Assembly (NCBI GenBank): GCA_965113315.1 | Contig: OZ220363.1 | DNA length: 64,000 nt | Strand: one strand, 5' to 3' | Source of the DNA: Podarcis vaucheri | Taxonomy: Eukaryota | The notes under the pieces: generated by a model | Database searches by the model: none | What the model was told of the DNA's origin: nothing | The model's input: only the letters and a program-made list of their open reading frames with translations | Position numbers and translations under genes: made by a program | Part shown: positions 1,790-52,371 of the stretch, one piece after another | How the letters are laid out: each line of letters starts with the position of its first letter | How positions within the stretch are numbered: position 1 is the first letter of the stretch

Positions 1790-2150
1790 CAAAATAAAAA
1801 AAATTCCTTCCAGTAGCACCTTAAAGACCAACTAAGTTAGTTCTTGGTATGAGCTTTCGTGTGCATGCACACTTCTTCAGATACACTGAAACAGAAGTTG
1901 CCAGATCCTTCTATATAGTGAGAAGGTGGGGAGGGGTGTTACTCAGAAGGGTGGTGGGAATGGGAGATAGGCAGATAGCTGAGAGAGCCTGTTGACGATT
2001 CTTAACGACTGTAATAGGTCTTACAGGAAAAGGCAAGGGGTGAGAAGGTGAGAAATGGTTTAGTCATGTATAGTGAGATAAGAATCCAATGTCTTTGTTC
2101 AGCCCAGGTCTTTCCATGGTTTTAAGTTTGGTAATGAGTTGTAATTGAGC
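1790..2150 (-). mobile_element. Penelope-like (Neptune-type) retroelement 3' fragment: C-terminus of the GIY-YIG endonuclease plus pseudo-LTR
   Basis: Minus strand 2150-2064 reads AQLQLITKLKTMERPGLNKDIGFLSHYT*, with the GLN end motif of PLE GIY-YIG domains. A hammerhead motif and the ttagttggtctttaaggtgctactgg pLTR tail follow. Flanked by GAGCAAAGT repeats. Confidence 0.85.
1847..1884 (-). ncRNA. Minimal type-I hammerhead ribozyme motif (PLE), antisense to KALRN
   Basis: Reverse complement reads GUAU-CUGAAGA-A-GUGUG(CAUG)CACAC-GAA-AGCU-C-AUAC: complete core, perfect stem II, palindromic stem III. Confidence 0.8.
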
Positions 2151-48243: not shown

Positions 48244-49262
48244 GTAATCTTAGTAATTCCTTGGAATAGTCATGATTTTTAATCACTTGATGCTCTGCTT
48301 AAGGTAATTGGTTTGCTATGCAATGGCTTTGTGAAGATTTGTCAGTGAGGGAGAAATTGTATAAATAGCTGTTTCAGTGAAATATCAACAGCACAATAAA
48401 CTTTGTCTACAGGGATCAGTTTCTCCCATAGCCATAACCTTGGATCCAGCAGAAATCAGGCATGGCTCTGTCTCTCAGCTGCCCAGCTGGTTCCTTGCTT
48501 CTAGTTCACACTCCTCAACTCTGGTCTTTCTAACCAACAGTTATATGTGCCCCCCCCCGAACCATTTTACCTCTAGCTTGGAGCCACTTCCTTTGTTACC
48601 TTAGCAACCCATACTTAGCCAGCCATTACCAAAAAACTTGCCTGGCTATTCCAGCAATTGAATCTTTGTTGGATTCAGGAATTAGAAGGGACTCAGGCAT
48701 ACAACCTGCCCCCTGCTACATACCAAAAAAAATCACAATAGTATGACTTACAGAGAGAACATTTGAATGGAAAGGTAGGAAATACTCCAAACTCTTGTAA
48801 AATGGAGGAAATATATAAAATGGAGGGGAAGGGTATAAGTACATTAATGTTTTGTACGTTTTTCCTTAAAGATTGTTATGCTTTCTTAATTCAAACTACT
48901 AAAAATGCAAGGACTGAGAAATGACCCTTGGCAATTGGCGTCCGTTTTCCAAAACAGCAAGGCTATAATCTAGATAGCTTGGTTTGGTTATGTGAGAAAT
49001 CCAAGCAGAATGGGCTATGGGCAGGCCACCCTCATTACAGAGCTATTTTAAGAAACATTGCTGTCACCATATAAGCCCAGGATAGTCAATTTCCAAGAGC
49101 AAACATGGTTATTATGTGCTAGCTTCATGGTAGAGGTGACATCATTCTAAATTACAGATTGAGTTGTAACACAAATGTGATCGGCTGAGCAACTGACTTT
49201 TCACATACTAGCAGAGCAGTTTTCAAATCCATTGACGAAATTTTCTGGTTCTATCCCCGCAG

Positions 49263-49365
49263 AGAGGGAGGAGAAGATGCTGACAGCCAAGGAGATGGGA
49301 GCAGTCAGCCAGACACAATTTCAATTGCATCCAGAACTTCTCAAAATACAGTGGACAGTGACAAG
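49263..49365 (+). CDS. KALRN: KALRN exon (last exon common to all isoforms before the 3' branch): (R)EGGEDADSQGDGSSQPDTISIASRTSQNTVDSDK
   Basis: ccccgcag| acceptor, AAG|gtagga donor, 103 nt. Confidence 0.95.
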
Positions 49366-49706
49366 GTAGGATTTGTTCTTGAAAATATAGCACTGCTGTA
49401 GAAGAGTCCGAAGTACTGTATTAAACTGTAGTCAGAGATAAAAATTAAGTGTTCTATCTTTCTGGAACTGCTTAAACTGTCTGTTTATGTGCCATTGCTG
49501 CATAGAGTTCATATCAGGTCATGCCCAACTTTGTCCCTCAGCTGACAGAAGTCTCTTTGATCCTGTGGAGGTTTCCATGAGTGGAAAGGGACAGGAGATG
49601 ATTTTTGAAAATTTCCCTTGTGCCGCTTTCCATTCTATTCAAAAACATCCTCTGGAGCAGATTTGAGGGGCACAGAAAATATTACCTCCTCCCTCAGGAG
49701 GTTGTA

Positions 49707-49865
49707 CAGTCTCCCTCAGGAGGTTGTGGATTCTCCTTCCTTGGAGGTTTTTAAGCAGAGGTTGGATGGCCATCTGTCATGGATGCTTTAGCTGAGATTC
49801 CTGCATTGCAGGGGGTTGGAATAGATGACCTTTGGGTTCTTTCCAACTCAAAGATTCTATGATTC
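49707..49865 (+). mobile_element. CR1 3' fragment
   Basis: ccttccttggaggtttttaagcagaggttggatggcc...gattctatgattc. Confidence 0.85.
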
Positions 49866-50813
49866 AATGTTTCTGCCTTTCTACTCATAGAAGCTTCAAT
49901 TGGATCAAATTGCCCTTCTCTCATTGAAGAGACACAATTGAATACAACTCATTCTTTGTGAGTGGGAGCATCCTGGAAAAGTAAAGCAGCCAGGTTGGAT
50001 TCACTCCATAAACTGGATCCAGGGTTATTTTTTCTTTCTTTCTTGGCACATTGGCATTGTGAATTGCACGTCATCCTTAAGCAGTTATCACCAAGAATTT
50101 ATGTGATGCAAATGTAAAAGAGCTGAGTTGCCCTCAAATCTGTGGCACCATAACATGGAAAAGACTTTCCTTTCCAAGTAATGTCCATGTGTTACTCCTG
50201 CTCTGTAATCGCAGGTGGAGGAGGAAGGATGGGCAAGGAGGCAAGGGCTGATTAGCAGGGCCAGCCTGATAGCATATAAGCAACCTAAGTAGTCACTTGG
50301 GGAAGGAATGCTTTTAAGGTTGTAAGTAGATTAGTGTGTGATTTGTAGCCCAGAAACTCTTTCAATATTCTGGATTGAGGGAGGCTCTGCTTGCTTCCTC
50401 GAAATTTTAAGGCACACATTTCAGATTGTACAGCACAATTGCTTGGAGGCATAGACAGATGGGGAATGTGAGCTTGTTGGACCCTGGAAATTGGTGGTGT
50501 TAGAAGAGGCCCTGTCAGGAATTGATAAACCACATATGAAGAGGGCTGCCAGGTCCAGGAACTCAAACGCACTTCAGCAAGAACAGCACAAGACTTTAGT
50601 GTGGTGTCCAAGGTGCACAACCTGGTAAGGAGTCATTTTGTGGGGTTGAATAGTCTCTATCTTTTCTCTCTTTGACATAGTGGAATGCTTGAAGATGATT
50701 GGATTCTGTTTTCATTGAATGCATTGTTCAGATCTGGATATTCAGTTGCCATATTAATTTGATTGGGAACAGAAATGCATCTGCTTGGTATTGTTTCCTG
50801 ATCTTTCAGCGGT

Positions 50814-50840
50814 GACAGACAGACAGACAGACAGACAGAC

Positions 50841-50870
<30 letters not shown>
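50814..50870 (+). repeat. Compound (GACA)n(GATA)n microsatellite
   Basis: Seen directly. Confidence 0.95.
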
Positions 50871-50871
<1 letters not shown>

Positions 50872-50899
50872 GTCCCAAGGCACACAATTCAGAATGCAA

Positions 50900-51047
50900 A
50901 CTTCTGATTCAGTGTATCTGAAGAAGTTTGCATGCACACGAAAGCTTATACCCAGAACAAACTTAGTTGGTCTCTAAGTTGCTACTGGACAATTTTTTTA
51001 TTTCATTTCGACTGCGTCAGACCAACCCAGCTACCTACCTAAATCTA
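50900..51047 (+). mobile_element. Penelope-like pseudo-LTR fragment
   Basis: Closely matches the reverse complement of about 1808-1900 (ttcagtgtatctgaagaag...acttagttggtct.taag.tgctactgga). Confidence 0.85.
50914..50951 (+). ncRNA. Minimal type-I hammerhead ribozyme motif (PLE), sense to KALRN pre-mRNA
   Basis: GUAU-CUGAAGA-A-GUUUG(CAUG)CACAC-GAA-AGCU-U-AUAC; core intact, one U-C mismatch in stem II. Confidence 0.72.
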
Positions 51048-51212
51048 GAATCGTGCAGAAGCAATTACTGAGCTGTAGTTTGATGATTGCTATTGAGTCT
51101 TGAAATAACACTGTTTGGTTCAGGTACAAAAGCAGAAAAGGTATAAAAAATTTCCTAAACTGCCTGAAAAGTATTGTCTATGGTACATTTGGGACAATGT
51201 TATGGTACATGC

Positions 51213-51373
51213 CATAGAATTATAGAAGTGTAGAGTTGGAAGGGTCATCTAGTCCAAAACCCTGCAATGCAGGAATCTGAACTAAACCACTGATGGCCAT
51301 CCAACCTCTGCTTAGAAACCTCCAATGAAGGAGCGTCCACAACCACCTGAGGGAGTCTGTTCCATGTTCGAAC
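51213..51373 (-). mobile_element. CR1 3' fragment (inverted)
   Basis: Reverse complement of the 49707-49865 copy over about 150 nt. Confidence 0.85.
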
Positions 51374-52371
51374 ATATGTCCTTTCCAGAAGCAGGGTAAA
51401 TATCATAAGCAGCATTGTTGGCAGAGCAAACCTGTGAAACAGGAGTAAATCTTAAATGAATAACTTTTATAGGAGTCCTAAGATATACAAATTATGTTTG
51501 CATTAAAGGCATATTCCGGTGTTATTGGTTTAATTTCCTTCCAATAAAGTGGCAGTCATATGATCCTTCACAGATGTCTAAAAGGTCAGTAGGGCTGGGC
51601 AAATGCACTGTTCCAAACACATTGTTCAGAAGCAGCACAAAGATTAGCTATGCTTCTTCCTTTTGTTTTGTTTTCTTAGGACCAATTTTGTATGTGGTTT
51701 GCTTAAGCGATTAGAGATCAACTCTAGTTTGCTATCATGGTTGTACACTTGCTTAACTTTCTTGGCAGTCTGAATCTCTGAATTTCAATTTTTTTTGTAA
51801 AGAATGACATAATACAATTAAGCACATAATCAAAGCCCTTGAGAAACCACAATAATCCTGCTCACAATATTAGTGACCTTAAAGCAAGGAACCAAGTCTG
51901 TTGGCAATACATTTTGAAGTCTGCAATATTTTGTCTGAAGGATCTTTTTCTTTTTTTCATTTCAAAATTTGGAAACTGTGGCAGAATTTAGACTGTACAC
52001 CTTATCCTGACTATTGCAAACCCTAGCAGCTGGCAGTAGATCTACTCACTTATTGACCACTCTGGCCACCAACATCCCCATCCTCAAAGAAGATTATGCA
52101 TTTTCTGAGAATTTAAGGCAAATTTCCCATGGCAACACATCTGCAGTGCCTCTCCAGCTGTTCCCATCCCTGCAAAACTGAAGCAAAGGCCAATCATTCC
52201 GTGATTTCCTATTATGTGCATATGTCACACATTGCTTTCTCAGGGAGTGATGCAGGTTTTTTGAAACATCCAAAGGCTGCATGTTACAGGTGGAAAAAAT
52301 GATTTCTAACCGGTCACATTTATACTAAAACATACTCAGCCAATTTATATACCACTCACTGAATATATATA

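Follow-up and report, generated by a model that had tools for sequence, protein, structure and literature searches.

A hammerhead ribozyme motif in a KALRN intron of Podarcis vaucheri is very probably an inert, mismatched relic of a Penelope-like retroelement

Minimal hammerhead ribozymes (min-HHRs) lie in the pLTRs of metazoan Penelope-like elements (PLEs), are marked by an extra base between positions 9 and 10.1, a G10.1-C11.1 pair and a palindrome at 15.2-16.2, and occur as thousands of solo truncated copies in hosts that include a turtle and snakes (Cervera and De la Pena, 2014; PMC4209133); supplement file 2 of that paper yielded no lizard entry. Cleavage was undetectable for single min-HHRs and low for dimers (PMC4209133). 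The min-HHR of Chrysemys picta, CUGAAGAA, has a 5-bp stem II, GCU-U, a 4-bp stem I and a UU cut site (PMC4209133). The hammerhead of PAc, a Poseidon element of Anolis carolinensis, cut only with protein in vitro, was dispensable for insertion in vitro and gave no RNA-seq ends at its site (PMC11167929). Type I hammerheads also occur in amniote introns (RECK, C10orf118, CTCL, DTNB), where those of the RECK type work as single motifs and have been conserved between groups of amniotes (PMC6155905, PMC10761166).

Here we compare with these systems a motif in the window, i.e. the whole 64-kb stretch of Podarcis vaucheri DNA that was analysed, which a first-pass annotation had identified as a Penelope-type minimal type I hammerhead in a KALRN intron that might affect 3'-end choice or might equally be inert. 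Sequence comparison and folding models lead us to consider it highly probable that the motif is a lone, mismatched transposon relic, inert and spliced out uncut, since it is a repeat copy with a broken stem II and a core predicted to be trapped, has no tandem partner, has diverged to an ordinary degree and falls in a class with the published behaviour of min-HHRs. The motif and its parts, assigned from the sequence, are as follows.

50914..50951, + strand: minimal type I hammerhead motif, sharing its layout with the Chrysemys min-HHR (supplement of PMC4209133)
50914-17 and 50948-51, + strand: stem I strands GUAU and AUAC
50918-24, + strand: CUGAAGA, followed by the extra A at 50925
50926-30 and 50935-39, + strand: stem II strands GUUUG and CACAC, with the loop CAUG at 50931-34
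50940-43, + strand: GAAA, with the palindromic AGCU at 50943-46 and U17 at 50947
50902-06 and 50953-57, + strand: UUCUG and CAGAA, the proposed extension of stem I

All the hammerhead elements named in the annotation were found in place. The core runs CUGANGA, GAAA and UH in type I order with a short helix I, its catalytic bases and stem I are all intact, and UH is UU, with the cut predicted after 50947 (50947/50948); A50925 is the extra nucleotide between 9 and 10.1, G50926-C50939 the G10.1-C11.1 pair and AGCU at 50943-46 the palindrome 15.2-16.2. The strands of the stem I extension are present, but their predicted pairing probability is 0.0. Both the UU and the CAGAA are common within the minor subfamily of the host repeat (below) and are no adaptation of the KALRN locus.

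A relaxed minimal-hammerhead descriptor matched the window twice, at 50918 (+) and 1880 (-), against seven matches in 150 second-order Markov simulations of 64 kb, and a looser pattern matched twice, while 100 shuffles averaged 0.13 matches and three of them reached two; chance origin of the motif at 50914-50951 is unlikely. Rfam, at E values up to 10, returned no hammerhead family for the KALRN-intron copy, a blank that is uninformative since an intact sibling fails as well, and the matches returned instead were below the gathering score and were treated as chance. The second descriptor match, at 1880 (-), is nearly identical to the first and pointed to an origin from a repeat.

50900..51046, + strand: 147-bp 5'-truncated 3' pLTR fragment of a Penelope-like retroelement (likely of Neptune type), minor subfamily, with full-length genome matches 87-94% identical
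1792..1899, - strand, antisense to KALRN: second copy in the window, major subfamily, with intact stem II
50814..50871, no strand: (GACA)n(GATA)n microsatellite, separated by 28 nt from the downstream element at 50900

The boundaries of the KALRN-intron copy were set by comparison of its flanks with 29 sibling hits and by alignment, with the 3' end of homology at about 51046; a 5-nt candidate for a target-site duplication was seen by eye and is not claimed. A genome search with 50872-51040 returned 1,831 candidates, the full-length matches among the 40 scored being 87-94% identical, and a 34-base core pattern had 10,730 exact matches in the genome (5,395 forward and 5,335 reverse), or about one per 150 kb, with none for the reversed control. 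The hammerhead at 50914-50951 is thus not specific to the KALRN locus but part of a high-copy repeat. Two subfamilies of the repeat differ downstream of the core, the minor one having 142 exact matches to a 45-base pattern and 287 to a 3' pattern. With regard to the microsatellite insertion bias of Neptune elements, the (GACA)n(GATA)n tract at this one locus lies 28 nt upstream and not at the junction.

The 64-kb window carries the non-coding tail of the element only, and the evidence on its coding part comes from sibling copies. A frame upstream of one sibling had 3,262 candidates in the genome, and among the 150 scored the open frames reached 520 aa and many candidates had identical scores. 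The hammerhead-bearing segment lay just downstream of the ORF at all ten long-ORF loci fetched, with 187-196 nt between the end of the ORF and the start of the core in the three loci measured. Both sibling ORFs scanned with Pfam had RVT_1 followed by GIY-YIG, RVT_1 being above the cut-off in both and GIY-YIG in one (22.0 and 25.2 bits vs 22.6). The CCHH motif of the endonuclease (C..C and two H) was found in three of three sibling ORFs, a CX2-5CxxC linker between RT and EN in two of the three (the first Cys is changed in the third), and the nearest named proteins were unannotated turtle ORFs at about 70% identity. We accordingly identify the repeat that carries the motif as a PLE, and the KALRN-intron copy as lying, like the min-HHRs, in the pLTR of such an element; the Penelope-type identity proposed in the annotation is borne out by the layout, by the pLTR location and by the RT and GIY-YIG ORF of longer copies.

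The linker is a mark of Neptune and Nematis that is absent from Poseidon (PMC8557442). The clade of the family is likely Neptune, with Nematis sharing the linker, and the EN+ PLEs of the Neptune clade have in common with the family an RT followed by a C-terminal GIY-YIG with CCHH, the CX2-5CxxC linker, a pLTR and frequent inverted 5' ends (Craig et al., 2021; PMC8557442). PAc resembles the family as a lizard PLE with a pLTR hammerhead that has no stable helix III, but it belongs to Poseidon, which is without the Cys linker found in the Podarcis family. The study of PAc is reportedly by Frangieh et al. Compared by eye, the stems of the Chrysemys min-HHR (PMC4209133) and those of the Podarcis family each show one compensated pair, which supports a selected hammerhead at the level of the family. 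From one locus to another the PLE ORFs hardly differ, and in the ten long-ORF loci fetched their open frames span 355-520 aa, so the major subfamily appears to have expanded recently. Several of the ORF loci are nested in other retroelements or lie beside an olfactory-receptor-like frame (labelled by eye).

49260..49365 (5' edge approximate), + strand: KALRN exon ending ...SQNTVDSDK, the last common to short and long isoforms (tblastn), with a GT donor at 49366

By tblastn, named kalirin proteins align to exons of the window on the + strand. The exon of the long isoforms, LSGGCELTVV, begins at window-extended position 84482 (G000:C1:95502482), which makes the intron between 49365 and 84482 35.1 kb long. 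The annotation was correct in placing the element in sense orientation 1.55 kb into KALRN intron sequence and in placing that intron after the last exon common to the short and long isoforms. Its statement that only one sense copy is visible is true of the window but not of the intron: 19.7 kb downstream, at extended 70623-70724, the intron holds another sense copy, which faces an antisense one head-to-head across about 14 nt. This inverted pair consists of intact major-subfamily copies (G000:C1:95488407-95488724, extended 70407-70724), and a similar pair lies at extended 150672-150865. An intron of 35.1 kb would hold a sense copy by chance with a probability of 0.11, which is a minimum since exact cores alone were counted, and the 264 kb examined hold six cores, three per strand. 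Separately, the KALRN-intron copy is flanked by oppositely oriented fragments of another high-copy repeat, putatively a CR1-like 3' end, at 49706-49869 and 51213-51360; their inverted arms (72 nt at 90% and 50 nt at 86%) are about 1.4-1.5 kb apart and could form a long-range duplex in the pre-mRNA.

Compared with the min-HHRs of PMC4209133, the KALRN-intron copy is set apart by a mismatch in stem II and by a competing hairpin made with bases at its junction.

50928, + strand: T for the family G, breaking the middle pair of stem II (U·C); the base is other than G in 84 of 10,730 matches
50894..50933, + strand: competing hairpin of the MFE fold, in which 50894-50905 pairs perfectly with 50922-50933

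G-C forms the middle pair of stem II in 10,646 of the 10,730 matches (99.2%), which gives the family a stable helix II, and about 17 of the 84 matches with another base, by a count from the list, have T at the position equivalent to 50928. The KALRN-intron copy retains four of the five pairs with a predicted pairing of 0.0, the isolated stem II with T being predicted at 0.0 vs -4.1 kcal/mol, and comparison with the siblings marks the mismatch as a defect of this copy and not the family form. Immediately upstream, 50894-50899 are non-family junction bases complementary to the T-bearing arm of stem II, and they lengthen a 6-bp ACTTCT/AGAAGT complement of the family to a perfect 12-bp inverted repeat with 50922-50933. 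The hairpin at 50894-50933 is predicted to trap the core of the KALRN-intron copy: its probability was 0.96-0.97 in six folding windows of 64 to 451 nt, in which stems I and II stood at 0.0, and folding predicts a structure other than the hammerhead for this sequence. Forming the hammerhead would cost 14.2 kcal/mol over the ensemble here against a median of 4.0 in 51 intact copies folded with their own flanks, four of which were as bad or worse, and the probability of stem II was 0.0 against a median of 0.84 in the same copies. The motif also has no helix III, and as a single motif it is dominated by the competing fold in place of a canonical one.

A modelled dimer of the KALRN-intron copy had an energy of +1.5 to -0.1 kcal/mol; the values were -10.9 to -12.7 for two copies that are fully intact and -6.5 to -8.1 where the copy has a G-U change. 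Nearest-neighbour energies ignore tertiary contacts, Mg2+ and proteins, and the hammerhead dimer is not the cofold MFE even for intact copies, so the folding model discriminates only relatively. No tandem partner or repeat was found at the locus, where the KALRN-intron copy is solo; a non-LTR retrozyme is a tandem array of at least two HHR-bearing units (bioRxiv 10.64898/2026.07.22.740005), a class to which the copy does not belong. The fallback of the annotation, that the motif is inert, fits best with a lone copy, a U·C in stem II and the predicted hairpin.

With its core intact, the KALRN-intron copy might alternatively be a weakly active passenger that cuts occasionally when the element's protein or an abundant sibling RNA refolds it in trans, without any selected consequence for KALRN. 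In favour, protein assists the hammerhead of a lizard PLE in vitro (PMC11167929), and the many near-identical ORF copies, with open frames of up to 520 aa, suggest recent activity of the family, so that partner RNA and protein may exist; a second sense copy is also present in the same intron. That copy, however, would pair with its antisense neighbour about 14 nt away, the tested Anolis element belongs to a different clade, and the penalty of about 14 kcal/mol and the broken stem II also weigh against such activity, which we regard as unlikely. We give very little credence to a bolder form of this idea, in which the family protein, or sibling RNAs acting via AGCU, would refold the motif in trans, cut KALRN pre-mRNA and tune short versus long kalirin in brain; were that true, intact intronic copies in their thousands would act as conditional cut sites throughout the transcriptome, and transposon activity would be linked to isoform choice in a synaptic gene.

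The annotation had also drawn a parallel to RECK and C10orf118, in which the motif would be an exapted intronic ribozyme whose co-transcriptional cut shifts KALRN to a short, Kalirin-7-like 3' end. Its sense orientation 1.55 kb into the intron before the long-isoform exon suits such a role, and the conserved amniote intronic HHRs are precedents (PMC6155905). In mouse, Kalrn chooses among 3'-terminal exons in this region, with a Kal7-specific terminal exon between two large introns, and the premise of a choice between Kalirin-7 and the long isoforms thus holds for mammals (PMC3048553). In the 35.1-kb Podarcis intron, however, the best local score of the Kalirin-7 tail (P0053) was 33 vs 31 for reversed DNA, and an AG-ORF-PDZ-ligand scan gave no candidate for a PDZ-ligand terminal exon; the search combined that scan with motif scans, tblastn and ungapped and gapped alignment, and a diverged short exon could escape it. 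The full tail was present in four mammalian proteins only, among 27 hits, and literature searches found nothing on Kalirin-7 evolution in non-mammals (at the level of listings) and nothing joining KALRN and hammerhead. Read-through of the splice donor (49366-49401) would append 11 residues, VGFVLENIALL-stop, similar to the C-termini of kalirin models from Varanus and Lerista. This could reflect either an artefact of gene modelling or a genuine short isoform made by reading into the intron; the next AATAAA, at 51543, would put the hammerhead copy in the 3' UTR of such an isoform.

Exaptation might also be expected to leave a trace in the divergence of the motif. Outside the search pattern, the KALRN-intron copy departed from the majority base of its siblings in 5 of 86 columns, and near-full siblings (11 of 30 picked by pattern) had a median divergence of 5%; for 29 hits picked by BLAST, one sibling locus being counted twice, the mean was 3.4% vs 6 of 130 sites in the KALRN-intron copy. 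A point against the inert reading is that the BLAST-picked siblings were less diverged inside the hammerhead (22 of 1100 sites) than elsewhere (103 of 2585), which may reflect search bias or fewer mutable sites. The divergence of the KALRN-intron copy appears ordinary, with no sign of constraint beyond that of its siblings.

Presence in relatives, which the annotation had put forward as a check, was followed through short contigs of four runs, covering a further individual of the species and three relatives, with 2-5 differences over about 408 bases in their upstream flanks. Contigs X4 and X14 contain the 3' junction of the insertion with about 16 element bases each, which is below the 31-base bridging rule of the junction call, and contig X5 holds a 64-base piece with one difference across the rare variants of the KALRN-intron copy. 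No empty-site allele was found among the 15 joints listed, where contigs break at the microsatellite (50808-50877) and X5 and X12 are without cover of 51056-51178. The insertion appears, from these short contigs, to be shared with at least two related species and probably predates the close relatives, as a divergence of 3-5% would predict. An age greater than the split of close relatives would itself favour exaptation. Nevertheless, a repeat with 10,730 core matches and sibling-like divergence, in a recent copy conserved no better than its siblings and without a helix III of its own, is unlike the low-copy, conserved hammerheads of the RECK type, and the parallel to RECK and C10orf118 is not supported. 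With more than 10,000 copies, the stem II defect, the predicted trap and no Kalirin-7 exon found, a role in the choice of the KALRN 3' end seems to us highly improbable.

The preferred reading, that of an inert relic, raises the question of where its defect arose. Five other minor-type copies carry the same T, and one of them (G000:C1:21107987) also shares the C at the 51027 position, a base seen in 5 of 287 matches; in three of these five the hammerhead region is missing, and the T is present in the two that retain it. We had considered that stem II decayed privately, once the copy was inserted, but a second copy sharing 50928T and 51027C led us to drop this view. We infer that the source element already had the broken stem, and the sharing of two rare variants suggests repeated copying of an element whose hammerhead was defective. 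Likewise, junction bases that match the T-bearing arm would fit fold-back priming of the cDNA end at insertion; both proposals draw on two copies and on a 6-base match noticed after the fact. Inverted 5' ends were visible by eye in 5 of 30 siblings and are described as frequent in PLEs (PMC8557442).

The history of the locus might then run as follows. In the family, the hammerhead would process the element RNA, either by dimerising at the AGCU palindrome or with assistance from the protein of the element. A source element already bearing the stem II change would have given rise to the KALRN-intron copy, target-primed reverse transcription stopping early and leaving it truncated at the 5' side. 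The cDNA end could have folded back at the ACTTCT/AGAAGT complement and been copied for six more bases, producing the 12-bp inverted repeat. On transcription of KALRN the predicted hairpin would form in the pre-mRNA and lock half of the core together with the 5' arm of stem II, and the intron RNA would be spliced out and degraded without cutting at a rate that matters.

As read here, the KALRN-intron copy is of little consequence, a single damaged representative of a type of transposon ribozyme that is already known. The two dispersed copies with a broken stem II hint that a source without a sound hammerhead could still be copied. More than 10,000 exact copies of one min-HHR from a recently active PLE family, a five-unit array among them, would be better material for testing in vivo cutting of vertebrate min-HHRs. 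The array, on the minus strand at G000:C1:5631954-5632397, has five exact cores of the same family at a spacing of about 101-104 bp in a retrozyme-like tandem arrangement; it could form dimers in cis and is a better test case for cleavage than the KALRN-intron copy. In addition, a CTGATGA-type minimal hammerhead pattern had 43 matches, which represent several further hammerhead families, mostly older and with a different stem II, including about six copies of one family with a longer loop 2.
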